A stretch of DNA of 36,144 bases from an uncultured virus (IMG/VR IMGVR_UViG_2061766007_003009) (IMGVR_UViG_2061766007_003009); one strand, 5' to 3'; positions 1,255 through 35,785 are shown, counted from the first letter of the stretch. Notes: a model not told the origin generated them from the sequence alone. Made by a program: numbers and translations.

Positions 1255-1344
1255 GGTTGACTCCTTTTGTTAAAAAAAAATTTTCGCTGGATGGTATATG
1301 CCAGGGGGTTGTGTCCCGGTCATCCCCCATCCGTACCCGGTGGG

Positions 1345-1854
1345 TTACTTGAGCATCCTGTCGNNNNNNNNNNTAGCCTCTTGAGGAACCTGGGGTCCTT
1401 CCGGGAGGGGAAGGGGAGTTGCTCGATGGGGATTCGGGAGAGTTCGGCCTCCTTCTTGAGGCGGATTTCCTCGGCCTTTGCCTGGGCGGCCATCTCCTGG
1501 AGTTGGAGGAAGTGCTGGTGCGCGTCGTCGGCGGAGGTGTAGTTGGCCTTGGAGAGCGTACCGGTGGAGCAGTTCCCGCAGGATACCGGGAAGCCCTTGA
1601 AGGTACGGGAGTAGTGGAGGTCCTTCCCGCAGGAACAGCGGTAGGGGTGCGGGAGGCCGAAGAGCATCGCGAAGCACTCGTCCACGCGGGCGCCGTGGTC
1701 ATGGAACACGTGGTCCTCGAAGGAGCGCTTCGGGAAGGGGGCGCGGCAGAGGGGGCAGTGGATGGTGGTNNNNNNNNNNNNNNNNNNNNNNNNNNNNNNN
1801 NNNNNNNTGGGTGACGTACTGCGGCTTCGGGGTGGTTATGTACTTGAGTTGCAT
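1345..1854 (-). CDS. Zinc-finger protein (C2H2-like plus C4-like), spans two gaps
   Basis: ATG 1854 (MQLKYIT) after AAGGAG; CPLC..HVFHDH, CSCG, CGNC; ends DRMLK-TAA abutting motif copy 1321. Frames joined across N gaps. Confidence 0.7.
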
Positions 1855-1974
1855 GGTTGGCTCCTTGTGTAAATTTCGATTTACAAAATTAAAAAATATT
1901 TCTTGGGTTATTGCCGGTATGCCCCCGGGAGGCTCCCGGGGCATCCCCCATCCGTACCCGGTGGGTTACCGGGT

Positions 1975-2292
1975 CTATGCCGGGAAGCATGCGGTGGCTG
2001 CCTCGGTTTCCGACAGGACGAAAACCTGGTCGCTCTCGGGGTTGCGGAGGTAGACTGTACCGTCCTGGCAGACGTGTTCCACCTCGCAAGTCTCTCCGTC
2101 GCAGCATACCGGCCCGTCGAAGTCGTCTGCATACAGGTCGAACCAGTCGCTGCCGGAGTCGTCCTCCGTATGCACCAGTAGGTCGCCGCATCTTGTACGG
2201 CGTCCGTTGACGCTTTCCTTGAGGGTGTCCCACAGGGTAGCGAGGGATACTCCAACGCGTTCGCCTTCGGTAAACAAAACTTTACTTGCCAT
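1975..2292 (-). CDS. Hypothetical acidic protein
   Basis: 105 aa ORF with AAAGGAGAC RBS; second gene of a two-gene unit. Confidence 0.8.
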   Translation of the reverse strand: MASKVLFTEGERVGVSLATLWDTLKESVNGRRTRCGDLLVHTEDDSGSDWFDLYADDFDGPVCCDGETCEVEHVCQDGTVYLRNPESDQVFVLSETEAATACFPA

Positions 2293-2328
2293 GCTGCTGT
2301 CTCCTTTGTTGAATTGTTATGCCCATAG

Positions 2329-2730
2329 TTACAGGGCGAGGTGGAAATGTGCCGCGACTTCTTCCCTAGCCTTCAATGCACAGGAAATGTCCACGCTGTC
2401 CCCTTTCGGCCACTCCGTCACGGACATGGACACCTCGTCAGTATAGGTTCCGCACTTCCCCGCCATGCGGAAATAGTCGTAGAAGTCCCTGCTCGTAGTC
2501 CACCAGAAGTCACGGCCCATGAGTGTAAAGCGCACCGATATGCACACATGCTTCTCGTCATCGCACCCAGCCTCCGACTCGGTTATCTCCGCTTCCGGCA
2601 GGCAGGCAAGTACCAGTGCTTCCGCGTTCTCGATGACCGAATGCGGAATGGCTATGCTCATGCACAACTTCTTCTCCAATGCAGAAATGCCTGCATTGTC
2701 CTTGACTGTATTCCTTTTTGACTTCTTCAT
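2329..2730 (-). CDS. Hypothetical protein (MKKSKRNT...)
   Basis: AAAGGAGAC RBS; true start lies downstream of the track's motif-derived start. Confidence 0.8.
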   Translation of the reverse strand: MKKSKRNTVKDNAGISALEKKLCMSIAIPHSVIENAEALVLACLPEAEITESEAGCDDEKHVCISVRFTLMGRDFWWTTSRDFYDYFRMAGKCGTYTDEVSMSVTEWPKGDSVDISCALKAREEVAAHFHLAL

Positions 2731-2806
2731 GTTCTTGTCTCCTTTGTTGATACGGGTATCCTCCCGGGGTGTACCGGGAGCATCCCCCATCCGTACCCGG
2801 TGGGTT
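2731..2806 (-). promoter_or_regulatory. Representative copy of the putative bipartite promoter/leader: CCACCGG-N4-GGATGGGGGATG-N20-GATA...AAAGGAGAC-ATG
   Basis: Core 2781-2792, 20-nt hairpin spacer 2761-2780, NATA at 2757-2760, RBS at ~2737-2746, ATG at 2730. The same geometry holds in about 46 copies. Promoter function is inferred. Confidence 0.65.
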
Positions 2807-2807
2807 A

Positions 2808-3331
2808 CTACGAGGCCCTCTCGAGCATGTCGAGGACAACCGAGTGGTTGTGGGACTGGTGGGTGAGGTCGTCGATGGCGTCGGAGTCCACCGAGTCGTA
2901 GTACTCGGAGTCGAAGTCGTCGTTTCCGAAGTACTCGAAGTCCACGTCCTCGTAGCGGTCAACGTCGAGGATGCCGGAGCCGTGGCATTCGCAGCAGGTC
3001 TCCTCGGTGGTAATGGGATTGCCCTCGTCATCCTCCTCCTCGAAGGTGAGGTAGCCGGACCCGTCGCAGTCCGGGCAGGGCTTCGAGAGGGAGACCCTGG
3101 ATACACCCTCGGAGATGAGGCGGGCTGCTGCCAGTGCCTTCCGGGAGGTATCGGAGGTATTTCCGAGTTGCTGCTTGAGGTCTGCGANNNNNNNNNNNNN
3201 NCGTCGAAGGAGCCGTAGGCTTCGATGAGGTCGTCTACGTATCCGTTCATGCAGGCCTGCGCCAGGCCCCCGTTGCAAATCTGGTAGTGGAGGTGGCCGA
3301 GCCATTCGAGTGCGGTAAATTTCCTGTTCAT
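2808..3331 (-). CDS. DMP19/DUF4375-like N-terminus fused to DnaJ-type Cys-rich Zn finger and acidic tail
   Basis: LHYQICNGGLAQACMNGY resembles the DUF4375 'V.NGG..QYF.N' motif; CPDCDGSG...CCECHGSG; frames joined across gap 3188-3201. Confidence 0.6.
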
Positions 3332-3411
3332 GGGTTGTCTCCTTGATTATATGGAGTATCCTCCCGGTATGTACCGGGAGCATCCCCCATCCGTCCCCGG
3401 TGGTATACGGT

Positions 3412-3807
3412 TTACTCTTTCCTGTGTTCCGGGAGTTTCATGTTGTCGGGCTGTGCCTTCTCGATTTCGTCCAGCATCTCGTCCAGGGAGTATTCGTGCT
3501 GCTCGACGGAGGGAGCGTCTTCTCTCCCGACGATTCTCCAGTCCTCGATGATGTACGTGCCGTTGTCGTCACCGGAGCCGTCGAGCGCGGCGAAGGTGTC
3601 GATGCCGATGGAGAGGCCGTCTCCGCCGAAGAAGTTGGCGATGACCTGGGAGAGCCTGGCCCAGCCGTAGCAGTCGGTCTCGGGGGGACGGAAGTTCATG
3701 CGGCGGCAGTATTCGAGGAAGCCCTCGACCGAGTCGCGGCCACCGTTCCAGTGGAGGTAGATTGCGAGGTCCTTCTTCTTGGTTGCGATTACGCAGCGAT
3801 TTCCCAT
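3412..3807 (-). CDS. Conserved phage/MGE hypothetical protein (MGNR...IYLHWNGG)
   Basis: 131 aa ORF, AAGGAGAC RBS; the MGxR..YxHWxG start is typical of MGE hypotheticals. Confidence 0.8.
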   Translation of the reverse strand: MGNRCVIATKKKDLAIYLHWNGGRDSVEGFLEYCRRMNFRPPETDCYGWARLSQVIANFFGGDGLSIGIDTFAALDGSGDDNGTYIIEDWRIVGREDAPSVEQHEYSLDEMLDEIEKAQPDNMKLPEHRKE

Positions 3808-3943
3808 GGTATGTCTCCTTGTTGGGGTGTTGGATTTCTTGTGTGAGTGCTATACCCCCGGTACTCCCCGGGGACATCCCCCATCCGTACCCGGTGGGTA
3901 ACGGGGGAGGATGCCCGGCCGGTACCGGTGATGCCCCCGGGGG

Positions 3944-3978
3944 AAAAGGGAAGCCCCCGGCAGGTACCGGGGGCTTCC
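3944..3978 (-). terminator. Putative intrinsic terminator
   Basis: 12-bp perfect stem GGAAGCCCCCGG/CCGGGGGCTTCC with a short U-run on the minus strand, just after the stop at ~3989. Confidence 0.6.
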
Positions 3979-3988
3979 GAGGAGACAA

Positions 3989-4843
3989 CTAAAAAANNNN
4001 NNNNNNNNTGGCCTTCTCCAGTTCGCCGACGCGTGCCTCCAGTTTTCCGATGCGGTCAGTCGGCATCGGTAACTCCGGGTTGGCAGCGGGGGGAGTACTG
4101 TCGGTCTCGTCTGGCTGGAACTGTCCATCGGGGTCCATCCTGGAGATGGCATCCTTGATGGTGTCCGGGGTGACCACCGTCACGTCCACGTTGTAGCCGT
4201 CGGACGGGTTGATGGACCAGAGGTTGAGCCAATTCCTGTCTTCCTCTAGGCAGAAGTCAACGTGGAAACGCCTGCCTTCGTAATCGAACCAGGCCTCAAT
4301 CCAGCGGGTCGGGTCCTCGTAGNNNNNNNNNNNNNNNNNNNNNNNNNNNNNNNNNNNNNNNNNNNNNNNNNNNNNNNNNNNCCGCTTGCCTTCGTAATCG
4401 AACCAGGCCTCAATCCAGCGGGTCGGGTCCTCGTAGTAGGTCTCGTGCTCGATGTAGGTTGCACCCGGGATGTTCTCCGCGATGAACCTGGCGGCGAGTT
4501 TGTCTATACGGCGGGACCGTTCGTTGGTTTCCTGTTCCGGCTTCTCGGCGAGGATGTCGTACATGGTGTCCTCGATTCCACCGGCAGGTTCCTGGTGGAC
4601 AGCGGGAGCAGCATCGCGGAGTTCCTGGATGAGGTCAAGGTAGGTTTCCTTGGAGAATACGTTGAGCATGACGTAGGTTCCTACGCGGTATGCCCCGGAC
4701 TCCCCGGCGGACAAGCCAGTGGCGTAAGGCTTGCTGCCGATGATGCGTACGGCCTCCCTGGCGTTATCCCAGTTATCGAACTTGAGGATTGCGCTGTAGT
4801 CGCACTGGCTGTACTTGTAACTGGAAAGAATGTCGAAGTTCAT
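3989..4843 (-). CDS. Hypothetical protein, short paralog of 5908-7836
   Basis: MNFDILSSYKYSQCDYSAILKF vs MEFDIIATQEHSHADFSALLAF; RBS AAAGGAGAC; contains gaps. Confidence 0.8.
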   Translation of the reverse strand: MNFDILSSYKYSQCDYSAILKFDNWDNAREAVRIIGSKPYATGLSAGESGAYRVGTYVMLNVFSKETYLDLIQELRDAAPAVHQEPAGGIEDTMYDILAEKPEQETNERSRRIDKLAARFIAENIPGATYIEHETYYEDPTRWIEAWFDYEGKRXXXXXXXXXXXXXXXXXXXXYEDPTRWIEAWFDYEGRRFHVDFCLEEDRNWLNLWSINPSDGYNVDVTVVTPDTIKDAISRMDPDGQFQPDETDSTPPAANPELPMPTDRIGKLEARVGELEKAXXXXXF

Positions 4844-4964
4844 GGTGTGTCTCCTTTGGTTGATACTGGTATCCTCCCGGTATCTCCCGGGGGCATCCCC
4901 CATCCGTACCCGGTGGGTTACATCTTGATGTTCCCTATAATCACGTGGGCTGGCCAGTTTCGTG

Positions 4965-5747
4965 CTAAAGTCCGGCTTCCGGAAAGACGAGGGTTGTTCC
5001 GCCGACCGCACCTTCATCAGTGGTGTAATAATCAGCGTTTATAACACGCTTTAGTTCCAAGATAGTTACTTCGGTAGTGAAGCCTTTCTTGTCGCAGTGC
5101 TCGACAACGTCATAAAACTTGTTATAGAGGAACTCTCCCACGGCACGCTTGACTGCGGAATAGTCTACTTGCCGTACGATAGGTTTGTTCTTCTTCAATC
5201 GGTCGTATTCTGCGTCGATGATGGCGACCGCTTCACGGAAGCGGGTTGCGGTTAACTTTTCGTTAGGGATGTACGGCAACCGCTCTAAGTCATAGCTGAA
5301 TTTGAATGTGGTCTTGCCCTTGTCGCTATACTTGACCGGCATAAAGAAAGCGGTATCGTAGTTATCTATGGTAGCGATGAGAAATTTTCCCTTGAATACG
5401 TGCATATAGCGACTTGGCCAGGATGTCTGGATGAACACCAGGCCATCTTTACTGGTGATACCAGCCAGATTTACACCATTATAGTTGTCTATGGGCGTAT
5501 TACCTACATAAAATACCCTGTGATAGGTTTTCTTATCCGGACCGACCACTTCCAACGAATAGTATTCGCCATAGTTAGTGTTACCTTTCTTGGGCATGAC
5601 AGCATGACCGTCCGGCGCAGACACAGTTCTGACCGAGTCAAGACCGACTTCACGATGGATGTCGTTGCACGAATAGTTGTATGACTGGATTTGCTTGATG
5701 AACTTAACGCCACTGATGCCGTAGTTGTTTGATTTCTTGGTTGCCAT
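4965..5747 (-). CDS. Hypothetical protein (MATKKSNNYG...), AT-richer than neighbours
   Basis: 260 aa ORF, CAGGAGAC RBS, motif copy 5803. Confidence 0.8.
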   Translation of the reverse strand: MATKKSNNYGISGVKFIKQIQSYNYSCNDIHREVGLDSVRTVSAPDGHAVMPKKGNTNYGEYYSLEVVGPDKKTYHRVFYVGNTPIDNYNGVNLAGITSKDGLVFIQTSWPSRYMHVFKGKFLIATIDNYDTAFFMPVKYSDKGKTTFKFSYDLERLPYIPNEKLTATRFREAVAIIDAEYDRLKKNKPIVRQVDYSAVKRAVGEFLYNKFYDVVEHCDKKGFTTEVTILELKRVINADYYTTDEGAVGGTTLVFPEAGL

Positions 5748-5907
5748 GGTTGTCTCCTGTTGGTTGTTGTATGTACAGTATGCACCCGGTATCTCCCGGG
5801 AGCATCCCCCATCCATACCCGGTGGGTAACGGTGGCGGCATTGCCGGGCATGCGGGATTCAGTTGGATGAAGAAGGGGCCTCCCGGGAGATNNNNNNNNN
5901 NNNNCAA

Positions 5908-7836
5908 CTAAATCTTCTTCTTGATTTCCTTGATTTCCTTCTGGACCTGGTCCATGAGGTTCTCGAGTTTGGTTACCCGGGTCTCGATGGAGGGTTCTTC
6001 CTCAATAGTTTCTTCCTCAAGAGTTTCTTCCTCAATAGGTTCTTCGGCAAGACGCTTGAGGTTTTTAGGGCAGATTTCATAATCGACAACGTAGTCGGAA
6101 CTGAGGTTACCTTCCTTGTCTATGTTACGGAATTCGTACCATACCTCATGGGTGTCGCAGTTGCGGTTTATTTCAAGCCGGAATCCGTTGCCCTTGTACG
6201 TGAAGAAGAGTGCGTACCAACCATATTCATTGGAAGCCCCTTCAGTCTCGGAGGAGTCGTAGGTAGCCTCCGGGAGGTACTGCTTGAGGAATTCGATGCC
6301 TGCTTCCGCGTAGGTGGAATTATCCTTGTCGCTTATGTGCTTGTCGGTCGGGGCGGACTTGAGAATTTCGATAATTTTTTCTTCCGTATTAACGATTTTC
6401 TCTTCCGTCTTGGCGAAGTGGCCTTCCTTGTCCACGGACTTGAGAAATTCCTTGATGCCTTCCGGAGTGGTGACTACCGAATCAATGATTTCGTAGTTCT
6501 TTTTCGCGGAGCAGAGGAACAGTTTCACGGTTCCGTTATCGTACACGACGAAGTCGATGTGGTAGTTCTTCCTCTTGTGGAAGAACCAGAGTTCAACCCA
6601 TTCGCAGTCGTCGCCGTAGCGTTCGCAGTCGCCGGAGCAGTCGTAGACACAATCGTCGAACTTGACTTTCGGGAGGTAGTCATCCAGGTAGGCCATGGCG
6701 GCCTTGTTGAGGGATTTCTTATTCTTCTTGAATATCTTATCAGCGTCCTCGATGGAGTTATTGTCGAGGTCGAGTTTCTTCAGAATTTCAAAAATTTTTA
6801 CGGCATTCCCGTTGAAAATGTGCTCATCGTCAACGGAGTCGATGGCAAACTTGATGTTGTCGGCAGTGACCACGCAGTAGGCACTATCGGAACCATCCTC
6901 GTGCACGGACCAGAGACGGATTTCATTCTTCTTGCTGGTAACGAGGAACTCGAGCCAGAACTCATTCCCGTTGTAGTAGAACCATACGTCAGCCCAATTG
7001 CCCTTGCCGTAGCGCTCAATATACCAATCCTTCAGGTCGGGGTCACAGTCGTAGCGCTCGAAGCCATAGGAACCACATTCGGTATCGCCGATGTTGGTTG
7101 CTCCCGGTATGTGCTTCGTGATGAATGCCTTGGCGGCGGCCAGGAGTGTCGCCTTGCTTGTCTTAATGTCGCTTTCAGTGGCCTGGCTCAGGTTCGGGAT
7201 GCTATTTACCAGGTTGAAGATTGCTTCTTCCGGGTTGCCGGAGAACTGCTGGTCAATGAAATCATCAAAATTTTTCTTGACATCCTCCTCGTTGCCCTCG
7301 TAGATGGAGAAACTCGGTTTACGCCAGTCCGGGATTCCGGATGCGAATACCTTGATTCGGGTATCCTCACCGTCACATAACAACTTGGCCCGGAAAACCT
7401 CCCCGCGGTAGGTGATGATGAACCAACTTTCTTCTTCATCGTGTTCCATGGCCTCCACGGTTGCTCCCGGGAGTACCTTGGTGAAGAACGGGATGGCGAA
7501 GTCGCGAGCCTCACTGTACGGGGCATCGATGTCGACGAGGGAGGTCCACATCTCCTTGTAGAGTTTGGAAATGTCGTCATCGGTTGCGGGAACGGGGAGT
7601 TTCTTCAGCATGTCGATGATTTCCCCGTATGCTGCCTTGGAGTACGTGTTGAACATGACGTGCTTACGCACCTGGAAGGCGCCGGACTGACCCGGCGTGA
7701 GGCTCTGCGTGTTTGCCCACTGGCTGTCGTTGATTGCCTTGGTGGATATCGTGGCTTCTTCAGACGAACTGAATGCGAGCAGGGCCGAGAAGTCCGCGTG
7801 GGAATGTTCCTGTGTAGCAATGATGTCGAATTCCAT
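5908..7836 (-). CDS. Large acidic protein with ~4 internal domain repeats and C-terminal coiled coil
   Basis: 642 aa from the RBS-supported ATG; repeat pattern A..F/Y....LP.a.......W....F.Y.G..F. Confidence 0.85.
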   Translation of the reverse strand: MEFDIIATQEHSHADFSALLAFSSSEEATISTKAINDSQWANTQSLTPGQSGAFQVRKHVMFNTYSKAAYGEIIDMLKKLPVPATDDDISKLYKEMWTSLVDIDAPYSEARDFAIPFFTKVLPGATVEAMEHDEEESWFIITYRGEVFRAKLLCDGEDTRIKVFASGIPDWRKPSFSIYEGNEEDVKKNFDDFIDQQFSGNPEEAIFNLVNSIPNLSQATESDIKTSKATLLAAAKAFITKHIPGATNIGDTECGSYGFERYDCDPDLKDWYIERYGKGNWADVWFYYNGNEFWLEFLVTSKKNEIRLWSVHEDGSDSAYCVVTADNIKFAIDSVDDEHIFNGNAVKIFEILKKLDLDNNSIEDADKIFKKNKKSLNKAAMAYLDDYLPKVKFDDCVYDCSGDCERYGDDCEWVELWFFHKRKNYHIDFVVYDNGTVKLFLCSAKKNYEIIDSVVTTPEGIKEFLKSVDKEGHFAKTEEKIVNTEEKIIEILKSAPTDKHISDKDNSTYAEAGIEFLKQYLPEATYDSSETEGASNEYGWYALFFTYKGNGFRLEINRNCDTHEVWYEFRNIDKEGNLSSDYVVDYEICPKNLKRLAEEPIEEETLEEETIEEEPSIETRVTKLENLMDQVQKEIKEIKKKI

Positions 7837-7917
7837 GGTGTTGTCTCCTTTGGTTGATGCATGGAGTATGCCTCCCGGATATCCCGTGGGCATCCCCCAT
7901 CCGTACCCGGTGGGCTA

Positions 7918-8190
7918 CTAGTAGATTTCGAGTTCCTCGATGTGGAAGATGTCGGACTTGGATTCTCCGTCCTCCTCCCAGGCGATAGTGAACCAGGTAG
8001 CCCCGGAGCATGCCAGGTCGGCAATTTCGGTTACGTTGGCGGGCTCCCCGGTCTCACCCAGGGTGGCACCGGGGTGGAGGCAGATGAGGGTGGCCACCTC
8101 GTCGCAGAGGGCCTGGAGGACATTGCCCTCCATTTCGTCATCTGCGGCCATGATGGAGTTCTCGTGGATAAGAAGAAATTTCTTTATCAT
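7918..8190 (-). CDS. Small acidic hypothetical protein (MIKKFLLIH...)
   Basis: ATGA overlap with the upstream stop; GGAGG RBS. Confidence 0.75.
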   Translation of the reverse strand: MIKKFLLIHENSIMAADDEMEGNVLQALCDEVATLICLHPGATLGETGEPANVTEIADLACSGATWFTIAWEEDGESKSDIFHIEELEIY

Positions 8191-8393
8191 TCGTCGCCCT
8201 CCACGTTGATTGTGAGCACGTCGCTGGTCACTTCGAGGCAGTCGATTGAGCATACCTCGCGATATAGGATGTCTGGGTCGGTGAGTTCGTCGCCCCGGCC
8301 ACGGAAGATTTCCCCGTTCTTGGAGAGGTCATAAATGGCGAATGACTGAAATCCGGGGTCAGTGAATGTTTCGATGAGTTCTTCTACGGTCAT
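8187..8393 (-). CDS. Small acidic hypothetical protein (MTVEELIETF...)
   Basis: AAGGAGAC RBS, motif copy 8445. Confidence 0.75.
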   Translation of the reverse strand: MTVEELIETFTDPGFQSFAIYDLSKNGEIFRGRGDELTDPDILYREVCSIDCLEVTSDVLTINVEGDE

Positions 8394-8486
8394 GTTGTGG
8401 TCTCCTTGTGTTAGTAGTACTATTCTCCCGGTACTCCCCGGGAGCATCCCCCATCCGTTCCCGGTGGGTTACTTGGTGAGGTACGC

Positions 8487-8924
8487 CTAGCCGTTGCCGA
8501 ACTCGAACGTACCCTCGGAAAAGATTGCGTTACCACCGCATCGGCTGAAACCGCCGAGTTTTGCGGAAAACTGCACGGTCACCTCGTCGTACACCTTGGC
8601 GTCCCCGTAGACCTCGGCGCGGTTGCATACGTCCGAATTGCCGAAAACCTCGGCGTTGCCGTGAACCTTGGCGGTGTGGCTGACCTGCGCGTTCCCGTAC
8701 ACCCTGGCATTTTCCCACACCATTGCGTTGTCGTGCACCCATGCCGCCCCCGTCTGGGAGAGGTTCGCCTCGGTCTCGACGTAACCCCCGACGGTACCCT
8801 TCTTGATTGTCAGTTCGGGATACCCCGGGTACGTGATGTCGCGAACCGCACGGATTCGGTGAAGGGTGTGACCGGATACGGTCTTCGTCTTGCCGGTAAG
8901 TTCGTACTTCTTGCTCGTTGCCAT
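8487..8924 (-). CDS. Hexapeptide-repeat (left-handed beta-helix-like) phage protein
   Basis: KYELTG..LHRIRAVRD..GGYVETEANLSQTGAAWV followed by VYGNAQ/VHGNAE/VYGDAK repeats. Confidence 0.8.
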   Translation of the reverse strand: MATSKKYELTGKTKTVSGHTLHRIRAVRDITYPGYPELTIKKGTVGGYVETEANLSQTGAAWVHDNAMVWENARVYGNAQVSHTAKVHGNAEVFGNSDVCNRAEVYGDAKVYDEVTVQFSAKLGGFSRCGGNAIFSEGTFEFGNG

Positions 8925-8946
8925 GTTGTGGTCTCCTTTGAAAAAA

Positions 8947-9666: not shown

Positions 9667-9823
9667 AATGATGTCTCCTTGTTTGTTTAAACCAGGTATC
9701 CTCCCGGTACTTCCCGGGAGCATCCCCCATCCGGACCCGGTGGGTTGCCGGGAGGCGCAGTGTTGTGGCAGGGGTGTGTTGAGTCCCTATTGCGCCTCCC
9801 GGCCCGGGCCAGGGAGTGCCCGG

Positions 9824-25681: not shown

Positions 25682-25698
25682 TGTTGGCTGCTATGGTA

Positions 25699-27287: not shown

Positions 27288-27401
27288 AGTAAGCCTCCAT
27301 TGCTTGTATATTATATATCCCCCGGTGGCTCCGGGAGGCATCCCCCATCCGTACCCGGTGGATACCATTGGTCTTGCCCGACCGGCCGCTTCAGACTCCA
27401 G

Positions 27402-27439
27402 AAAAAAGAAAAAAATTCCCGGGATTGCTCCCGGGAGTT
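27402..27439 (-). terminator. Putative intrinsic terminator
   Basis: CCCGGGA stem with long minus-strand U tract after stop 27448. Confidence 0.65.
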
Positions 27440-27447
27440 CCTCCTTC

Positions 27448-27813: not shown

Positions 27814-27822
27814 AATGCTCTC

Positions 27823-27954
27823 CTAGTAGCGGAAAGTACGCTTTCCGGTGTGAGTGAAAATCGGGGTGGACAGCCTCTCCGGCTTGTCCTTTTCCTCTGC
27901 CTTGCGTTCCTTGATACGCTCCGCAAGCAGTTCTGCAAGTTTCTTCTCGTCCAT
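27823..27954 (-). CDS. 43-aa small protein (MDEKKLAELLAE...)
   Basis: AAAGGAGG RBS, motif copy 28005. Confidence 0.65.
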   Translation of the reverse strand: MDEKKLAELLAERIKERKAEEKDKPERLSTPIFTHTGKRTFRY

Positions 27955-28122
27955 GTCAGCCTCCTTTCGGTATATACCATATGCCTCCCGGAACCTTCCG
28001 GGAGCATCCCCCATCCGCTCCCGGTAGATACCGGGAAGAAAAAATTTGGAAAGCCCCATCCCGGGGCCTTCCCGTCATTTACCCGTGGTATCCCCCGGTA
28101 CGCCCTTCGTTGCCACGTGCCA

Positions 28123-28445
28123 TTACTTGACCCCCTTCTTGACGGTCTCTGCGGCACTGTCGGCCTTCTTCTTGATGTTGGACTTGGCGGTCTCCACCTC
28201 GTCCTTGACGGCCTTGACCACCGCATCCTTCGCCTCGGTCGCCTGCTCGGCAATGGCCTCGCCCGTGCCCTTCGCGCCCTCTACGGCTACGTCCACGACC
28301 GCGCTCGCGGCATCCCCGGCANNNNNNNNNNNNNNNNNNNNNCTGCACGGGCGGTCTCCTTCGCGGCTGCACGGCTATCGTCCCCGCAACCCACTAGAAT
28401 ACCGATTGCGAGAACCGGGAGGAATCTGAACAACATTCTTTTCAT
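28123..28445 (-). CDS. Putative lipoprotein with Ala/Lys/Glu-rich helical body
   Basis: MKRMLFRFLPVLAIGILVG-C lipobox; AAAAGGAGAC RBS; ends AETVKKGVK-TAA; not shown intact in the ORF track because of a gap. Confidence 0.7.
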
Positions 28446-28532
28446 ATATGTCTCCTTTTGGAATAAAAAATTTTCACATAGGGACTATGCCCCGGGAATC
28501 CCCCGGGACATCCCCCATCCGCTCCCGGTGGG

Positions 28533-28913
28533 TTACTTGTATTCTTCCTCGTCCTTGCGGGCTTCCTCGCAGAGCCTTTCAAACAGGGCTGGGATTTCGC
28601 TTACCTTCTGGATACCCTCGTCAGGGCCGACCGCGCAGCCATAGCCGTTCTTGACCTCTACGAACAGTTCAAAGTGCTGTTCCTCGCCCCACTCCACGGT
28701 ACGGAAACACCCGGTAAACTCCTTGTTCTCGAAGTCGAGGTCGTAGCGGGTGTCCTCTTCATCCCCGATGTGTGCATCCACGATGTCCACCTTATCCCCG
28801 ATGGTATCAACAAGAATCTTCTCCATTGCGGTCTTGACGAAGTCCTTTGTAAAAGCCGACCATTTGCCGTCAGCGGGAACCGCCTCGTTGATTGCCTTGA
28901 TAATTGCGTCCAT
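28533..28913 (-). CDS. Acidic hypothetical protein (MDAIIKA...)
   Basis: GGAGG RBS; stop abuts motif copy 28509. Confidence 0.8.
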   Translation of the reverse strand: MDAIIKAINEAVPADGKWSAFTKDFVKTAMEKILVDTIGDKVDIVDAHIGDEEDTRYDLDFENKEFTGCFRTVEWGEEQHFELFVEVKNGYGCAVGPDEGIQKVSEIPALFERLCEEARKDEEEYK

Positions 28914-29063
28914 AGTATTGCCTCCGCGCTTAAAATTCTGCATTATGGATATGCACCCCGGTGCTACCGGGAGCATCCCCCATCCGCTCCCGGTGGGTAC
29001 CGGGAGATGACCGGGAAGAAAAATTTTCCTGCCGGGAGGTTCCGGCANNNNNNNNNNNNNNNN

Positions 29064-29472
29064 GCATTTGTTCGCGACCTGGTCCGCAGGGCGTATTCCA
29101 TTCCTCCTGCAGGCTCAGTTTCACGCGCTGTGCCGTGGTCAGCGGGGACTTGCTTATGCAGTGGTCATAGACCCTTGTAGTCCCGTAGTAGCCGTTATGG
29201 TACCACTTGCGGTACACGTAGTATCCCGCGTCCTTTATGTCGGCCACGATGGCATCCCAATGCTCCTCGGTCAGCAGGAAGGACTCGTTGCCCCCCTTGA
29301 ACTCCTTCACCCACCCTGCCCAAATGTGCTCGGGCATAGGAGTCTTGTCATAGGACTGCTTTTCCCACTTCTTGGAAAAAATATATTCCTCCACCTTTTC
29401 CACCTCGTGGCGGAACTGCTTGGCGTTCTGCTCGGCAATCTGTTCTTGAATCGTGTTGTTCTTTGGAATCAT
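29064..29472 (-). CDS. Hypothetical protein (MIPKNNT...); stop probably in gap
   Basis: GAGGT RBS, motif copy 29521. Confidence 0.7.
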
Positions 29473-29657
29473 AGCATACCTCGTTTGTTATATACCATAT
29501 ACCATAGGAACCTCCCGGGCCATCCCCCATCCGCCACCGGTGGCTACCGGTATCGCCAGCGGGGCACGCTGGAGCCCCCTCGGTGGTCTCCGGAGGGGGC
29601 ATACGGCAGAGCCCTCCCGAGGGGTATCGGGAGGGCTCCACGTTCGCTATGGTATCG

Positions 29658-29858
29658 CTACCATACGGGTCTCTTGAGGCACCTGATGACCGAGGCGTAG
29701 AACGCCACGAGCACCACGAGCCAAGAGACTCCGAGTTCAACGGTATCGCCCGAGAATGCCCACGTGCCGTTGGCGATAGCGGCAAGCGTGATGGCGGTCT
29801 CGCCAACGAGGGCGAGGGTAAAGGCGGTAAGCACCGCCACAATCAGGGTCTTGAGCAT
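29658..29858 (-). CDS. Small two-TM membrane protein
   Basis: MLKTLIVAVL...ETA...ELGVSWLVVLVAF; paralog of 35291-35646. Confidence 0.7.
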   Translation of the reverse strand: MLKTLIVAVLTAFTLALVGETAITLAAIANGTWAFSGDTVELGVSWLVVLVAFYASVIRCLKRPVW

Positions 29859-29993
29859 AAGCAACCTACCCGATTTTGCAGGTTTCGTGGGCAACCTGCG
29901 TCAGCCCGTCCTCATTTCCTATCCATATAGGAACCTCCCGGGGCATCCCCCATCCGTACCGGGTGGACTACCGGGAGGATGCCGACCCGGCGG

Positions 29994-30272
29994 CTATTCG
30001 CCATCCCCGAAGATGGCCTCAAGAACCTTACGGCAGAGGTCGTTCAGTTCAGTCAGTTTCCGGTCAAATTCAGCCCTGCGCTCGGCCACGCAACGCTCCG
30101 CACCCTCAATTACGCTCTTGGGGGCACGCATATCCTTGAGCCGGACAACCAGTTCCTCGTAGTGCTTCATCTGCCTGTACACCCGGCAGAGTTCTGCCTT
30201 CTTCTCCTCGTATACGTCCGGGTGCTTGGCCTTGCGTTCGTTGTGGGCGGTTCTGCGTGTCTTGTTTGCCAT
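29994..30272 (-). CDS. Helical hypothetical protein (MANKTRR...)
   Basis: 92 aa, AAAGGAG RBS. Confidence 0.75.
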   Translation of the reverse strand: MANKTRRTAHNERKAKHPDVYEEKKAELCRVYRQMKHYEELVVRLKDMRAPKSVIEGAERCVAERRAEFDRKLTELNDLCRKVLEAIFGDGE

Positions 30273-30542
30273 ATTGTACTCCTTTGTTATGGCGGTTAAA
30301 CATCTCTCTACTTACTTATCGTATCGGTGCAGGCTTTTGTAAAGTATCTCGCTAAAATTTTTTTCTCGGCTCTCCTGCGCCCTCTACTATTATATCGCCA
30401 CGTATAGCCATTTTGACAACCTACTGCAAGAAAAAATATTGTAAATGTTTCTTTACCTGTAGCATCCCCCATCCGCTCCCGGTAGACACCGGAAGCCCCC
30501 CGGGGAGTCCCCGGGAGGTTCCTTGAGAGGTAGGTGTAAGTG

Positions 30543-30827
30543 CTAGAACAGCCCGCAGATGACCTTCGCCATCTCGTCAAACTCGGCAGTGACCTCGTCC
30601 TTGCTCATCTCGTCAGGTGCCGAAAATCCAGGGGTAGGACTGCGGGCGTCAATGAAGATACGGGTGCCGTTAACCTTGTACTGCGCGCTGCGGATACCTA
30701 CGGAACTGCTCGCAATGCTATCCCCGACGGTTACCATGAACTTGCAGGTCTTGTTGGTGTCGGTGTTGCGTACCGCCAAGCAAACCATGCCGGGGCGGAA
30801 GGGGAAAGTCTTTGTCTCGTATGCCAT
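30543..30827 (-). CDS. Hypothetical protein
   Basis: 94 aa, GGAGG RBS, motif copy 30877. Confidence 0.75.
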   Translation of the reverse strand: MAYETKTFPFRPGMVCLAVRNTDTNKTCKFMVTVGDSIASSSVGIRSAQYKVNGTRIFIDARSPTPGFSAPDEMSKDEVTAEFDEMAKVICGLF

Positions 30828-30958
30828 ATAGCCTCCATTCGGTTAAAAATTTTATCCTGCCGGATATCCCCCGGGGCATCCCCCATCCGCTCCCGGTAGA
30901 CACCGGTGGCAGAGGACGGGGAGTCCCCGGGAGGTTCCTTGAGAGGTAGGTGTAAGTG

Positions 30959-31255
30959 CTACTTGACCCGAAGGGTCTCGCCACAGCCCGTGAACCACGG
31001 GGGGTTGTTCACTGCCTCGTCCCAGCCAAATCCGCCCTCATTGATAACCTGCTCAAGTTCGTCAGCGGAAAGGTTGTTGGAGTCGTCGTTGGAGTCGGTA
31101 ATGCCTAGTTCACTGCTGACCACGTAGAATCCGCCCCCGTCATAGTCGTACATGAGCGTCATGCCCTTGTCAGCGAGCGAGGCGTTGAAGTCGTTCCACA
31201 GGGCGACCGCCTGCTTGCGTTGCTCTTCGGTTATGTGAGTGAAAGTCTTTGCCAT
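30959..31255 (-). CDS. Acidic hypothetical protein
   Basis: 98 aa, GAGAGGT RBS. Confidence 0.75.
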   Translation of the reverse strand: MAKTFTHITEEQRKQAVALWNDFNASLADKGMTLMYDYDGGGFYVVSSELGITDSNDDSNNLSADELEQVINEGGFGWDEAVNNPPWFTGCGETLRVK

Positions 31256-31319
31256 AGTAACCTCTCTTGTTGTATTTTAATTATTCTCCCGGTAGTTACC
31301 GGGAGCATCCCCCATCCGT

Positions 31320-31368
31320 ACCGGGTGGCTACCGGGAGCAACCGGGAGCCACCGGGGACCCGGGTGGC
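31320..31368. repeat. ~10-bp tandem repeats ACCGGG(A/T)G...
   Basis: accgggtggct accgggagca accgggagcc accggggacc cgggtggct. Confidence 0.7.
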
Positions 31369-31676
31369 TACGTGCAGGGCTCCACTTCAGCCGAGTAGTC
31401 CCCTAGCGTCAGCAGGACGAAGGACTCGCCCGAGTCCGGCTCGGTCAGTCGCAGGATGTGGTGCCCGCTTGCGAAGTAGTCCACGTACTCGTCGTCTTCC
31501 TCGTCATACCCGTCATCAAGTTTCACGATAATTGAACTTTCTGCCCCGTCTTCCCATAGCACGCTAGGGTAGATACGGAGTTTCTCGTCCGGTTCAATAT
31601 TGTCCAACGCCTGCGTGAGGGCGTCCATATCGTAGGTAATCCTGTACCCACCGAAAATAATTGTCTTGCGTTCCAT
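31368..31676 (-). CDS. Strongly acidic hypothetical protein
   Basis: 102 aa, GAGAGGT RBS. Confidence 0.75.
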   Translation of the reverse strand: MERKTIIFGGYRITYDMDALTQALDNIEPDEKLRIYPSVLWEDGAESSIIVKLDDGYDEEDDEYVDYFASGHHILRLTEPDSGESFVLLTLGDYSAEVEPCT

Positions 31677-31788
31677 AGCATACCTCTCTGTTACATTTTA
31701 ATTATCCTCCCGGTATCCACCGGGAGCATCCCCCATCCGCACCCGGTGGATACCAATCTACTCCGCGGGCCTGAACTCTCTGTCCCAG

Positions 31789-31829
31789 AAAAAAGAAAAA
31801 GAAAAAAGCCCCGCCTTTCGGCAGGGCTT
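31789..31829 (-). terminator. Intrinsic terminator
   Basis: AAGCCCTGCC-GAAA-GGCGGGGCTT followed by a long U tract on the minus strand. Confidence 0.8.
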
Positions 31830-31845
31830 GGCAGGGAAATTCCCA

Positions 31846-32328
31846 TTATTTCACGTTCAGCACCCTCGCTTTCGGGGTCTTGACAAAGTTCGCACCCACA
31901 GCCTCAACGAGTTTCGCCTCGTCAATGCCTGCAATTTTCATCGCCTGCGTGGGGCTCAAGCCCACAGTGAACTCCGCCACGTCCTTGCCGCAGAGTTCGG
32001 CCAAAGCCCTAGCGGCCGCCACGCAGTCGCTGAACTTGGTCTGATAGGTCTGCGCCTCCCAAGACGCACACGCAGGGAGCGACTCGGGGGCGACCTCCAT
32101 ACAAGCCTTGAGACCCGCCTGAATGGACTCCGCCACCACCTTGCACCAACGCATATACGTGGCGAGGTCGCTGATGGACTCAGCAAGGGCTGCACGCTTC
32201 TCCACGAAATCGGGTGCGGTCTTGTCCGCCTCCGTAATGAACTTGTAAGCCTCTTTTGCCCCATCAGTCAAGCCCGAAGGCGTAACGATGTAGTCAAGGG
32301 GTTGAACGAATGTTTCCTTTTTAGCCAT
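31846..32328 (-). CDS. Hypothetical protein (MAKKETFV...)
   Basis: GAGAGGT RBS, motif copy 32379. Confidence 0.8.
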   Translation of the reverse strand: MAKKETFVQPLDYIVTPSGLTDGAKEAYKFITEADKTAPDFVEKRAALAESISDLATYMRWCKVVAESIQAGLKACMEVAPESLPACASWEAQTYQTKFSDCVAAARALAELCGKDVAEFTVGLSPTQAMKIAGIDEAKLVEAVGANFVKTPKARVLNVK

Positions 32329-32460
32329 AAGCACCTCTCTTGTTGTATATATCCTATGCCACAATAAAGTTCTTGGAACATCCCCCATCCACGCCGGGTG
32401 GACTCCCGGTACCTCCCGGGATGCAAGAGGAATCCCCCGGGAAACTCCCGGGAGAATCTT

Positions 32461-32838
32461 CTAGAGGTTCTCAAGTTCGTCCTCTATGAACTCCTTCTGC
32501 AAGCCCTCCCAAAGGGCGGAGAACATCGGCGCCATCATCATGAAGCGGACGGTATCCACCACCTCCTTCGGATTGCCCTGCACCATGCTGGCGAGCAGGT
32601 TCATGCCCGCCACCCTGCCCGTATGCGTGGCGAGGTAGAGCGGGATGCGGTTACCGCACTCCGGATAGAGTTCGTAGAGCCTGCGGAGAATGTACCTGTC
32701 ACGCTCAAGGGCTTTCTCTATGCCCCCCAATGCGATGTTCAACGGCTCCCCGTCATTCTGCTTGCGGATGTCCTCAAAGTCCTCCCGCATATTCTCAACG
32801 ATTTCATCAAGTTCAACCTTGTCCTCTTCGCTCAACAT
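32461..32838 (-). CDS. Hypothetical protein (MLSEEDK...)
   Basis: GGGAGG RBS, motif copy 32908. Confidence 0.75.
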   Translation of the reverse strand: MLSEEDKVELDEIVENMREDFEDIRKQNDGEPLNIALGGIEKALERDRYILRRLYELYPECGNRIPLYLATHTGRVAGMNLLASMVQGNPKEVVDTVRFMMMAPMFSALWEGLQKEFIEDELENL

Positions 32839-33007
32839 ACTAGCCTCCCTGCTATCGGGCGGACACCCGCCCTCATATCCCCTATGCCACCCCGTCCGCT
32901 CCCGGGGCATCCCCCATCCGCACCGGGTGACACCACGTCCTCCCGGCAGGGGACACGGAAGGCCTCCCGGGGGGTACCGGGAGGCTCTCCTTGACGCACC
33001 GCGTGAC

Positions 33008-33208: not shown

Positions 33209-33404
33209 GGTCTTACCTCTATTTTGTTGGGCGGACACCCGCCCGACAATATCAGTATGCCACAATAAAATTATTGGAACATCCCCCATCCATACCGGGT
33301 GGATACCGTGCCGCCTGCCCTGAAGCATCCTGGAAGCAGTCCCGGTACCATACAAGAAACCTCCCGGCAGTTACCGGGAGGCTCGCAGGCAGGTATTAAA
33401 ATTT

Positions 33405-34016
33405 TTACTTGTTCATTGTACTGCGGAACAGGTCGGGGTCCATACGGCACATACTCGTATATCCGCACTTTCCGACCACGATATGGTCAATTACGGAAAT
33501 CTTCATTATTTTTCCCGCGTCACAGATTAAGCGGGTAATTGCCCAATCCTCTTTGCTGGGTTCGGTGGAACCGCTCGGGTGGTTGTGGGCAATCATAATG
33601 CTCACTGCGTTGTCCAAGAGGGCGGTACGGAATACCTCCCGCGGAGCGATAGGGGTCTGGTTCACGAGTCCCACCGTCACGTCGTGCTTGTTGATGACGT
33701 GGTTTGCGGCGTCAAGCGTCAGCACCACGAAGTGCTCCTGCGGCTCGAACTTCAGCCCGCAGAGGTACGGCATCGCATCCTCCGGTGCTATCACGCTCTT
33801 CGCCTCGGTGCCCACCACGTAACGGGCCGACAGTTCACAGCAGGCGATAATCTTCTCCGCGGTGCTCTCCCCGACTCCCCGGAAGTTCATCAGGTTCTCC
33901 TTGCTCGGGATACCCGTGCAACCTGCAAGGTAGTCAGTGACCCTGCGGGCGAGGTCAACGTCGCCCAAGATAGCCCCGAAGAGCCTTTCCGTTTTCTGTG
34001 CGTTCTCTATATCCAT
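33405..34016 (-). CDS. radC: RadC-family JAB-domain protein with HhH motif
   Basis: RGVGESTA (HhH); QEHFVVLTLD; PREVFR; AHNHPSG...PS..D; IDHIVVG. Confidence 0.92.
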   Translation of the reverse strand: MDIENAQKTERLFGAILGDVDLARRVTDYLAGCTGIPSKENLMNFRGVGESTAEKIIACCELSARYVVGTEAKSVIAPEDAMPYLCGLKFEPQEHFVVLTLDAANHVINKHDVTVGLVNQTPIAPREVFRTALLDNAVSIMIAHNHPSGSTEPSKEDWAITRLICDAGKIMKISVIDHIVVGKCGYTSMCRMDPDLFRSTMNK

Positions 34017-34132: not shown

Positions 34133-34216
34133 CTAACCGTGATACCCCCCAATGCGTCCAAATTCGCTTTCTAGGTTGTAGCGGTGACGGATTCCGGTGA
34201 GAATTATTCTATGCAT
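34133..34216 (-). CDS. Possible 27-aa peptide MHRIILTGIRHRYNLESEFGRIGGYHG
   Basis: Strong AAGGAGAC RBS; I see no other RBS-supported ORF between motif copies 34338 and 34063. Confidence 0.4.
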   Translation of the reverse strand: MHRIILTGIRHRYNLESEFGRIGGYHG

Positions 34217-34395
34217 TTTTTGTCTCCTTGTGGATATGGCGTGAAAATGGATTCCTTCAGGGTGCGGCTACACTATGGTCTGCCTCTACACCGGAGTCCA
34301 TACAATCTTCTATATGGCAGAAAAAATTTCCCCCGGGCATCCCCCATCCGTACCGGGTGGATACCGGGGCTGCCGCCGGGGATGCCCCCGGGAGG

Positions 34396-34707
34396 CTACT
34401 TGGTCGCCTCCTCGTACTTGGCGAGCACCTCGCGCTCAATCAGCGCCCGGAGTTCCCCGTCCATCGGCACCACGACGCTCTTGAACTCCTCGCCCTTGTA
34501 GAACGGGTCAAGGGGATAGGACACGAACAGCCCGCTGTTCCCCTCCATAATGCGGAGACCCCTGACCTGAAGGCAGTCGTTCAGCACAATCTGGGCAAGA
34601 CCCCTCATGTGCCCGAGGCTCGGGCCTTCCTTGAACGGGAACACGAGCACCTGCGTGACCCTTATGCCCTTGACACTATCGTTTTCGCTAAAAATATTTT
34701 CACCCAT
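34396..34707 (-). CDS. spoVG: SpoVG-family nucleic-acid-binding protein (second copy)
   Basis: LAQIVLNDCLQVRGLRIMEGNSGLFVSYP...LRALIEREVLAKY. Confidence 0.85.
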   Translation of the reverse strand: MGENIFSENDSVKGIRVTQVLVFPFKEGPSLGHMRGLAQIVLNDCLQVRGLRIMEGNSGLFVSYPLDPFYKGEEFKSVVVPMDGELRALIEREVLAKYEEATK

Positions 34708-34910
34708 AGGAACCTACCTCTTTCTGACGGACACCCGCCAACATATACACTATGCCGAATAAAAAATTTCCAATCATCCCCCATCCTCTCCCGGTAGACN
34801 NNNNNNNNNNNNNNNNNNNNNNNNNNNNNNNNNNNNNNNNNNNNNNNNNNNNNNNNNNNNNNNNNNNNNNNNNNNNNNNNNNNNNNNNNNNNNNNNNNNN
34901 NNNNNNNNNN

Positions 34911-34934
34911 AGCCCCCGCCTTGCGGCAGGGGCT
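34911..34934 (-). terminator. Putative terminator hairpin
   Basis: AGCCCC(C)GCC-TTGC-GGC(A)GGGGCT after stop 34954; any U tract would lie in the gap. Confidence 0.5.
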
Positions 34935-34953
34935 CATCTAGGCAGGTTAGTGT

Positions 34954-35190
34954 CTACGGGAGGTCGTCCGTACTGCGGAACGTCCAGATACGCTCGCTCA
35001 TGCCACATCCGATGGAGTAGAACAGCGTGAACTCAAGCGAGTCATTCTCGCTGAACACGTGCGGGAGCATGGAAACAAGTTTTTTCTTCGCAGAAAGATA
35101 ATCGGTATCGCTGACGTGCAGTTCGGTCACGTTATAGTAGCGGATACCATCGGTATGGACATTGTGTACGTGAAAGCAAAAAGAAATCAT
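34954..35190 (-). CDS. Hypothetical protein (MISFCFHV...)
   Basis: GAGGCAGG RBS, motif copy 35260. Confidence 0.7.
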   Translation of the reverse strand: MISFCFHVHNVHTDGIRYYNVTELHVSDTDYLSAKKKLVSMLPHVFSENDSLEFTLFYSIGCGMSERIWTFRSTDDLP

Positions 35191-35290
35191 AGTCAACCTG
35201 CCTCTTATGGGCGGACACCCGCCCGACACTATGTATATGCACCTAGTACCCTCCCGGGGCATCCCCCATCCGCTACCGGTGGAATCCCGG

Positions 35291-35646
35291 TTACTGGCGG
35301 ATGCCTGGCCGGGGCCTGACCGGAGGGNNNNNNNNNNNNNNNNNNNNNNNNNNNNNNNNNNNNNNNNNNNNNNNNNNNNNNNGTCCTCCTGTTCGTCCTC
35401 GGAGTCCTCCTGTTCGTCCTCCGGTTCGTCCTTGTGGAACACCCACACGCCTACAATCGGGCGGCCAACACCCCAAGCCGCACGCACGACTGCGGCACAG
35501 AACCCCACGAGCACCACCGCCCACGCAACAGCGAGTTCAATGGCGGCAGAGAGCCCCCCGATGTGCCCCGTAACGAACAGGGCAGTTTCAGCCACGAGGG
35601 CAACCACGAAAGCACCCAAGATAGCAACACAAAGCGTCTTACGCAT
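35291..35646 (-). CDS. Two-TM membrane protein with acidic EDEQED repeats; end uncertain (gap)
   Basis: MRKTLCVAILGAFVVALVAETA...ELAVAWAVVLVGF. Confidence 0.65.
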
Positions 35647-35785
35647 ACGCACCTACCTTCTTTGGGCGGACACCCGCCCGACAATATTACTATTCCATAC
35701 GTACCCTCCCGGAACATCCCCCATCCCCACCGGGTGGACTTACGGGAATCTCCGGGAGGATGCGGGAGCGGGCCCGCAAGCCCGT

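Follow-up and report, generated by a model that had tools for sequence, protein, structure and literature searches.

A repeated intergenic unit as a candidate phage-specific promoter cassette in an uncultured virus

The DNA of an uncultured virus, IMGVR_UViG_2061766007_003009 (36,144 nt, analysed over its whole length and referred to here as the window), raises the question of what a single short sequence does in the gaps between its genes, and which protein might read it. A pattern count gave 47 exact matches to the 12-mer GGATGGGGGATG, every one on the minus strand, compared with a mean of 5.9 matches (maximum 14) in shuffled sequence when up to two mismatches were allowed. We propose that each copy belongs to a promoter that would be read through a phage-encoded sigma factor, a statement to which, taken in full, we give a probability of roughly 55%, with a promoter of some kind being held more likely than the full statement.

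Anatomy of the repeated unit

All credible genes of the window are on the minus strand, and the motif occupies the gaps between them, with one unit per intergenic gap, oriented in the direction of the genes, between positions 338 and 35726 (minus strand). Next to the 47 exact cores there is a 48th unit at 21943-21950, where a run of N masks its 5′ half. The spacing between copies is about 270-2100 nt, with a single gap of 3.9 kb. Two further matches with two mismatches, at 21462 (plus strand) and 34999 (minus strand), were rejected as units, the second being located inside coding-like sequence and lacking an ATA.

Each unit is about 75 nt long and contains, in order, a C(C/T)ACC(G/C)GG box, seven bases (N7), the octamer GGGGGATG, a spacer of 20 nt, the sequence NATA, a pyrimidine-purine (Y-R) step, a ribosome site and an ATG codon. 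The upstream box reads CCACCGGG in 34 of the 47 units and mainly CCACCCGG or CTACCGGG in the remainder; it is separated by 3 nt from the 12-mer and by 7 nt from GGGGGATG, which represents the last 8 bases of the 12-mer, and it is often directly abutted by the stop codon of the previous gene. Some 15 variable bases separate NATA from a GGAG-type ribosome site, which precedes ATG, and in 41/47 units a ribosome site, start codon and open reading frame (ORF) of at least 40 amino acids (aa) start 46-71 nt past the core (mode 49-50 nt), the six units without such a gene start being those at 34338, 30463, 29944, 22103, 1942 and 338. Overlaps between ORFs and units coincide with runs of N and are probably artefacts of masking. 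In a representative unit, belonging to the gene at 2329-2730 (all features on the minus strand), the upstream box CCACCGGG is located at 2796-2803, the 12-mer at 2781-2792, a spacer with the dyad CTCCCGG-N6-CCGGGAG at 2761-2780, NATA (here GATA) at 2757-2760, the Y-R step at 2748-2749, the GGAG ribosome site at 2739-2742 and the ATG at 2728-2730.

An earlier, sequence-only reading of this DNA had described the motif as bipartite, with NATA positioned 19-21 nt past the core in nearly all copies, and this spacing was confirmed: all but two of the 47 exact copies have an ATA behind a spacer of 19-21 nt (45 copies; 20 nt in 30, 21 nt in 10 and 19 nt in 5), compared with 3.3% of all window positions. 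The two exceptions that it named were reproduced exactly, with no ATA at unit 338 and a spacer of 22 nt at unit 30463. The N of NATA is C in 23, G in 14, A in 5 and T in 3 of the 45 copies. It had also claimed that the length is kept in AT-rich spacers, and indeed the spacers of the three units it named (32379, 33280 and 34775; spacers at 32359-32378, 33260-33279 and 34755-34774 on the minus strand), which lack the dyad, are all 20 nt long, although those of 32379 and 33280 resemble each other and are therefore not fully independent. The window copies are paralogues of one unit of about 75 nt, and descent accounts for part of their regularity; related phages appear to provide better evidence for a constrained length, having other spacer sequences and yet 37-39 nt between upstream box and ATA. 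Two elements of the earlier description had to be widened. The term bipartite is correct for two blocks at a fixed spacing but understates a unit that also has an upstream box, a spacer dyad and a downstream Y-R step, and the 12-mer, despite its 47 exact copies in the window, shares only its last 8 bases, GGGGGATG, with two related arrays described below (G001 and L123), suggesting that the family-wide core is GGGGGATG or merely a run of G rather than the 12-mer.

A putative transcription start was derived from 95 NATA-anchored units, comprising 47 of 48 GGGGGATG matches from the window, 23 of 25 from G001 and 25 of 25 from L123, with GGGGGATG matches lacking an ATA at a spacer of 18-22 nt left out. 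Counted from the N of NATA, position +11 is a pyrimidine in 91% and position +12 a purine in 97% of the units (A in 76%), and the base preceding N is G in 85%; positions +4 to +8 and the neighbours of the +11/+12 step are uninformative. A Y-R step 7 nt past a hexamer opening with N-A-T-A would match the -10/start geometry of sigma-70-family promoters. With the start assigned to the purine (2748 in the representative unit), the upstream box would span about -55 to -48, GGGGGATG about -40 to -33 and NATA -12 to -9, with its ATA at -11 to -9, and the predicted leader would be about 17-20 nt long, with about 18 nt in the representative unit. A sigma-70 consensus scan of both window halves gave no hit at any unit, hence these are not canonical sigma-70 promoters; as in sigma-70-family promoters in the wide sense, they do have a constrained distance between two blocks and a purine as predicted start about 7 nt after the downstream block.

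Related arrays and a linked sigma-70-family gene

Five related arrays were identified, with 23-31 units each; in every array the units share one direction and do not extend beyond a block of ORFan genes. Scanning metagenome contigs for the pattern yielded L123, which is part of a 284 kb contig, and L130, and a scan of viral contigs yielded G001 (116.7 kb, CheckV completeness 41%). G001 has 24 units in its first 18.7 kb, all forward and of the type CCACCGGG-N7-GGGGGATG-CTCCCGG-N6-CCGGGAGG-NATA, and none in the remaining 97 kb except for one chance 8-mer, and L123 has about 25 units of the same type within the 20 kb examined. The approximately 31 units found within 20 kb of L130 are built from CCCACCGGG, a CCGGGGG run, another dyad (GGGGG-N3-CCCCC) and GTGG(A/C)ATAC. 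In G002 (222 kb, 78% complete) all 29 units are forward, between 100 and 124 kb, and read CTATCGGG-N4-GGATGGGATG-CCCGGGA..CCGGGG-ATTCCCA, and in G003 (260 kb, 91% complete) all 23 units are on one strand between 223 and 259 kb and read CACCCGG-N6-ATGGGGnGCCACGGG-N~14-nATA, with no common dyad. The core is lineage-specific, being GGATGGGGGATG in the window, CCGGGGGATG in G001 and L123, GGATGGGATG in G002 and ATGGGGnGCCACGGG in G003, while the modal distance between upstream-box end and ATA is 37 nt in the window and in G003, 37-38 nt in G001 and L123, and 39 nt in L130; the length is kept and the intervening sequence drifts. Other searches were negative: a 7.9-kb part of the window matched nothing in the phage collection, a 661-aa window protein had no match in plasmids or viral contigs, and a strict 23-nt pattern did not occur in the viral contigs scanned; a 17-base pattern searched against genome contigs gave, among the matches listed, only chance-like single matches.

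Since the window genes are homologous to the array genes of G001 (up to 88% at the amino acid level) and of L123, and largely collinear with both, the window is assigned by sequence comparison to a T4-like jumbo myovirus of about 285 kb. Its clade comprises T4-like jumbo phages of about 220-285 kb from cattle gut. Consistent with this, G001 encodes a T4-like tail-sheath stabiliser, a prohead protease, a baseplate wedge protein, an NAD-dependent ligase, TnpB-type elements and a gp55-like late sigma factor, and the replication module of G003 is T4-like.

In all three relatives in which the end of the array is visible (G001, G002 and G003), the array is followed by the same series of features, consisting of an FtsK-like gene, a RadC-like gene, an AT-rich gap with the sequence TATATTT, and a gene encoding a 256-aa protein of the sigma-70 family. 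A single sigma sequence searched against viral contigs matched only itself, and an alignment search added two more; a profile of 13 homologues, which occur on contigs of up to 466 kb, matches regions 2 and 4 of RpoS and SigA in PDB with E-values down to 6e-9. Identity to the G001 protein is 49% for the one from G002 and 46% for the one from G003, and the array boxes of both phages differ as well, suggesting that the array motif changes as the linked sigma factor diverges.

Two other promoter-like classes were found in G003. Its replication genes are preceded by tttGCTATATTTG, for example upstream of the genes at 31614-32930, 35177-38110 and 46606-47796 (L148-L158), and this sequence contains TAnnTTTG, described as the -7 box of the Bacteroidetes primary sigma factor (PMC7366714). 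Structural genes have nATAAACT at 25-43 nt upstream (37 sites), with examples before the genes at 25643-29554 (tail sheath) and 65225-73336 (2703 aa). This box resembles the T4 late promoter TATAAATA, which in T4 is used with gp55, and a gp55-like factor is encoded at 135798-136529 in G003 and at 106326-107081 in G001. The tttGCTATATTTG sequence is often located only 14-16 nt before the start codon, without a ribosome site and with a recurrent AACCTATG start context, unlike the array and late genes of G003, which have GGAG or GAGGT sites, and hence one phage combines three classes of genes that differ in their promoter and translation-start signals. The array motif would represent the third promoter class beside tttGCTATATTTG and nATAAACT, and as there are three sigma factors to be matched with three classes (host, gp55-like and sigma-70-like), we infer from elimination and linkage that the array class goes with the sigma-70-like factor.

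For the suggestion that the replicon might encode a dedicated sigma factor, RNA polymerase or activator, the sigma-70-family gene beside the array in G001-G003 provides a candidate; no such gene is seen in the window, and Pfam models for RNA_pol (PF00940), Rpb2_6, MotA and AsiA gave nothing above threshold in G001-G003, a result of little weight for PF00940, the control for which matched no control genome. The proposal of a non-host promoter class gains support from the orientation of the units, their distance to gene starts, the Y-R step, the lack of a match to the sigma-70 consensus, and the linked sigma gene in the relatives.

In the mechanism we favour, a jumbo T4-like phage would place a promoter cassette of about 75 nt before nearly every gene of a one-directional block of small genes, and a phage sigma-70-family factor would direct the core of the host RNA polymerase to these units, with its region 2 reading NATA and its region 4 reading the G-rich box. 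The sigma gene itself, behind its AT-rich host-type promoter, would be transcribed with the host sigma factor, giving a cascade from host sigma to phage sigma to array, and the gp55-like factor would serve the late genes. The palindrome in the spacer would probably be bound by another phage protein acting as a common gate for all units, and the near-identical cassettes may double as crossover points for swaps of gene cassettes. Some units follow canonical terminators, including three strong hairpins with a T-run in the window, each located after the end of a gene and ahead of the following unit (31806-31829, 28048-28072 and 27417-27436, minus strand), and an eight-member terminator family ahead of units in L130.

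Several points weigh against this mechanism. The start site was predicted from sequence alone, and the public runs that contain the window sequence are cattle-gut metagenomes, none of them on record as RNA. The window itself shows no sigma gene, which by analogy with G001 would be expected about 10 kb past its low-coordinate end; the link is drawn from relatives, and the downstream end of the array is visible in three of them only. No base is conserved at -7 of the putative -10 element in the 95-unit set, the G-rich box is farther upstream than a normal -35 element (20 nt gap), and the tryptophan pair usual in region 2.3 is missing from the aligned sigma protein, which together make the fit to sigma-70 rules a loose one. 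In the G002 units ATTCCCA replaces NATA, and in L130 the Y-R step is off by one base. No minus-strand terminators were found in window positions 1-18000, and read-through could therefore express genes without the units; a polymerase or activator may be hidden in the incomplete G001 (41%) and G002 (78%) or among the giant G003 proteins without a family, and if the array genes are the earliest to be expressed, the need for a newly made sigma factor is awkward.

An alternative that we consider unlikely is the host sigma factor acting with a phage activator. T4 middle promoters are of this kind, combining a MotA box with sigma appropriation by AsiA. NATA would then be the weak half of the host -7 box, a protein on the G-rich box, the CCACCGGG box or both would recruit the polymerase, and the sigma-like gene would have another role. 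The array units of G003 do end in GCTATA, the opening letters of the host-type box GCTATATTTG of the replication genes, two conserved upstream boxes exceed the need of one sigma region 4, and the array is rich in proteins of no known function that could include an activator. However, no MotA or AsiA homologue was found in G001-G003, the units lack the TTTG half of the host box, and the sigma gene is conserved beside the array in 3/3 visible cases.

The spacer dyad and its half-site tracts

A perfect inverted repeat of at least 5 bp is present in the spacer of 34 of the 47 window units, and is nearly always CTCCCGG/CCGGGAG. When the 94 units of the window, G001 and L123 were combined, 78 could form at least 5 of 7 pairs and 16 had no stem; of 546 stem cells 500 were Watson-Crick pairs, and the mismatches (8 G-T, 12 A-C and 26 other) showed no wobble bias on the sense strand. 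Some positions are altered on both sides, for example from T-A to C-G, which fits a hairpin and a dimer-binding palindrome equally well. As units and whole lineages without the dyad keep the geometry, the dyad is not an essential promoter element.

The half-site also recurs outside the spacers, in one tract in each of three lineages. These tracts are about 200-350 bp long and have a period of 10-11 nt, with about 20 half-site copies each, first in one orientation and then in the other (CTCCCGG, then CCGGGAG), and they adjoin atypical units without NATA. In the window the tract (CCGGGAG on the plus strand) is at 207-431, around the unit at 338-349, and runs into the N-masked region 432-785; those of G001 (L139) and G002 (L146) are at 12302-12568 and 6467-6795, respectively. 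The tract may fall within a long ORF, and as the TRF program also reports periods of 21 and 30 nt, it is possibly coding. Helically phased half-sites are typical of protein-binding DNA, and the tract looks like a protein-binding array, which could be a sink, a centromere-like site or an iteron. Given this recurrence, the dyad is probably an operator for a phage protein rather than a hairpin; the GC hairpin of the sequence-only reading is real as a dyad, but its conservation in sequence makes a protein-binding site more likely.

The same data bear on an action of the unit at the RNA level, where the GC hairpin on read-through transcripts would be a signal for processing, stabilisation or termination, and the spacing would merely be inherited. 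The pairing in 78/94 units with changes on both sides of some pairs agrees with such a role, as does the lack of other terminators in the lower half of the window. A few units with a T-run after the stem score as terminator-like; with GATAATTTTT after the dyad (25556-25575, 23183-23203 and 22463-22481), spacer and -10 region also score as an intrinsic terminator for upstream transcripts. We nevertheless regard an RNA role as improbable, as the stem is conserved in sequence in most copies, there is no sense-strand G-U bias (8 GT versus 12 AC and 26 other), the 16/94 units without a stem and the G003 units without a common dyad keep the spacing and the ATA, and the half-site recurs in phased tracts. 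Rfam covariance models run over the whole window gave no match at gathering thresholds, and the ATA and the Y-R step would be left unexplained.

The tracts, as a high-affinity site or sink, could also be reconciled with units that are not promoters at all, and serve instead as operators for a phage repressor that blocks or times transcription of the array. Stoperators of cluster A mycobacteriophages are 13-bp repressor sites at no fixed distance to start codons, and share with the array the dozens of short asymmetric motifs in one direction in short intergenic gaps; the palindrome within the unit adds to the likeness. Here, in contrast, the unit is about 75 nt long with a promoter-like geometry, a fixed distance to each start codon, the ATA and Y-R signature, and conserved sequence far beyond the need of an operator, and units that follow strong terminators still require a promoter. 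Operators in place of promoters are accordingly less probable still, whereas an operator role for the dyad alone is compatible with promoters read by a phage sigma factor.

A GC stem close to the predicted start might alternatively indicate promoters of a phage RNA polymerase that has escaped recognition and may enter the cell together with the DNA; it would use hairpin promoters like the virion polymerase of phage N4 and allow early genes to be transcribed ahead of any new protein synthesis. The giant proteins of G003, including one of 2703 aa in the late class, have no match in PDB by sequence, in Pfam or in the protein atlas, and such an enzyme could be among them. Searches of G003 (91% complete) for a polymerase domain were negative, a result of limited weight given that the PF00940 control matched nowhere. 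The stem is not obligatory, being absent from 16/94 units and from the units of G003, and its loop is 6 nt, compared with 3 nt in N4 promoter hairpins. The replication module is T4-like, and T4-like phages transcribe with the host RNA polymerase. We thus give this explanation little credence.

If the sigma-read promoter is combined with the putative operator, an operator in nearly every promoter and a tract of about 300 bp with about 20 half-sites, acting as sink or timer, could form a genome-wide switch of a kind undescribed for phages, and the whole accessory block of these rumen jumbo phages (at least 48 genes in the window) would depend on a three-box design (about -52, -37 and -11, with a 20-nt gap) read by a divergent sigma factor without the usual melting tryptophans. 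This extended scheme is speculative, and we consider it rather unlikely as a whole.

Cassette exchange, described systems and genes of the window

The array unit appears analogous to the promoter-early stem-loop (PeSL) cassettes of T4-type phages, reportedly described by Arbiol in 2010, which would be the closest described system. PeSL cassettes consist of a repeated intergenic stem-loop, a promoter, a Shine-Dalgarno sequence and a start codon before ORFans, act as modular shuffling sites, and have sigma-70-like -35 and -10 boxes read by the host sigma factor, with the stem-loop upstream of the -35 box (Comeau 2014, PMC4122927). Both systems place a repeated composite unit before ORFans in hyperplastic regions of T4-like myoviruses, and both are associated with insertion, deletion and exchange of cassettes among related phages (here the window, L123, G001 and L130). 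They differ in that the array boxes are unlike the sigma-70 and TAnnTTTG consensus, the dyad is located between the boxes rather than upstream of -35, a further box upstream brings the number to three, a phage sigma gene is linked to the array, and the density is higher, with 48 units in 36 kb. By its boxes, the position of its dyad, its third box and its linked sigma gene, the unit would be a phage-specific promoter cassette set apart from PeSL. A literature search turned up no prior description of the motif, which is not proof of absence.

Exchange at the units is seen in the comparison of the window with L123 and G001, where cassettes are missing, added or moved within the largely collinear order, with the breakpoints at units. 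Furthermore, L130 contains two units of the window type, with the exact 12-mer and the CTCCCGG dyad (10012-10023 and 10615-10626), among about 29 of the other type, near two copies of a 253-nt repeat (9717-9969 and 10674-10926, 96% identical), which suggests that cassettes have recently moved between phage lineages along with their promoters. That the units are mainly recombination joints of a selfish or integron-like cassette system without a regulatory role, as this gain, loss and movement of cassettes and the two foreign units in L130 might suggest, is very improbable, since no integron integrase was found among the scanned array or flanking genes, the unit is located 5′ of a gene at a fixed spacing to the ribosome site and not 3′ as attC, unlike in an integron, and swapping at repeated promoters by homologous recombination is to be expected anyway, in line with the account given for PeSLs (PMC4122927). 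The roles of joint and promoter are not mutually exclusive.

Other described systems share single features with the promoter cassette. Phage sigma factors that redirect the host core polymerase to phage promoters unlike those of the host are known from Bacillus phage SPO1 (gp28 and gp33/34), and the proposed pair would similarly consist of a sigma-70-family protein, here predicted from sequence, and a promoter class with non-host -35 and -10 boxes; the differences are the TAnnTTTG-type host lineage, the T4-like backbone, the G-rich upstream element with its 20-nt gap, the extra box at about -52 and the spacer palindrome. T4 itself likewise has temporal promoter classes, matched here by the gp55-like factor and the ATAAACT box of the relatives, but with MotA and AsiA not found in G001-G003 the array class has its own sigma-70-family candidate. 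MerR-type promoters have a spacer of 19-20 bp with a dyad operator between -35 and -10, comparable to the over-long spacer of about 20 bp with an inverted repeat in the array; however, no MerR-family gene was identified, and because dyad-less units keep the 20-nt spacing, the long gap is built into the unit rather than being corrected by a bound protein.

If the proposal is correct, an uncultured clade of giant cattle-gut phages would have a strongly over-represented promoter consensus together with a candidate cognate sigma factor, in hosts that appear to have Bacteroidetes-type promoters and in which phage transcription control is almost unstudied. Temporal gene classes could be assigned from sequence alone via the array, TAnnTTTG and ATAAACT boxes, and the array box would flag the block of accessory or anti-defence genes. 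The PeSL idea of repeated promoter cassettes as gene-shuffling joints would also reach beyond host-type promoters, and an orthogonal pair of sigma factor and promoter could be an expression tool in Bacteroidota.

Nearly all proteins of the window are ORFans, and the few matches are to a RadC-like protein, a DUF1281-like domain and a small number of PHROGs without known function; the RadC-like gene, with a JAB domain (33405-34016, minus strand), is among the few array genes with a family match. A low-GC stretch (down to 31%) without an internal unit is located at 18172-21942, with long minus-strand ORFs at 20736-21893 and 18677-21067, the latter partly masked, and is conserved in L123. It encodes a protein of about 800 aa kept in L123 (13801-16299, up to 84% at the amino acid level) and without a Pfam family, 852 nt of it are masked in the window, and it could be a foreign insertion. 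A number of other identities for the repeat were considered and rejected, including a CRISPR-like array (the "spacers" are genes), a tRNA or other known RNA (after RNA searches, including the Rfam search without matches), a single-strand promoter of a conjugative leading region (the relatives are myoviruses) and a plain intrinsic terminator (most stems are not followed by a T-run).

A second small hairpin, GGGCGG-GTGT-CCGCCC, is present in five copies on the minus strand (35664-35679, 35209-35224, 34725-34740, 33229-33244 and 32857-32872), each beginning a few bases past the predicted start of one of five units at the upstream end of the window, and these look like 5′-terminal, stabilising leader hairpins. 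G001 has several genes for TnpB with a Cas12f-like TNB domain (30419-31729, 52478-54214 and 73618-74778) and serine-recombinase genes at 29829-30413 and 58978-59622, with some TnpB genes paired with resolvase-type genes in an IS607-like arrangement. It also encodes a protein with a Fibrobacter succinogenes major domain (Fib_succ_major, E-value 8e-15) at 60070-61737 (L142:70-1737), which, taken with the TAnnTTTG boxes, may hint at the group of the host.

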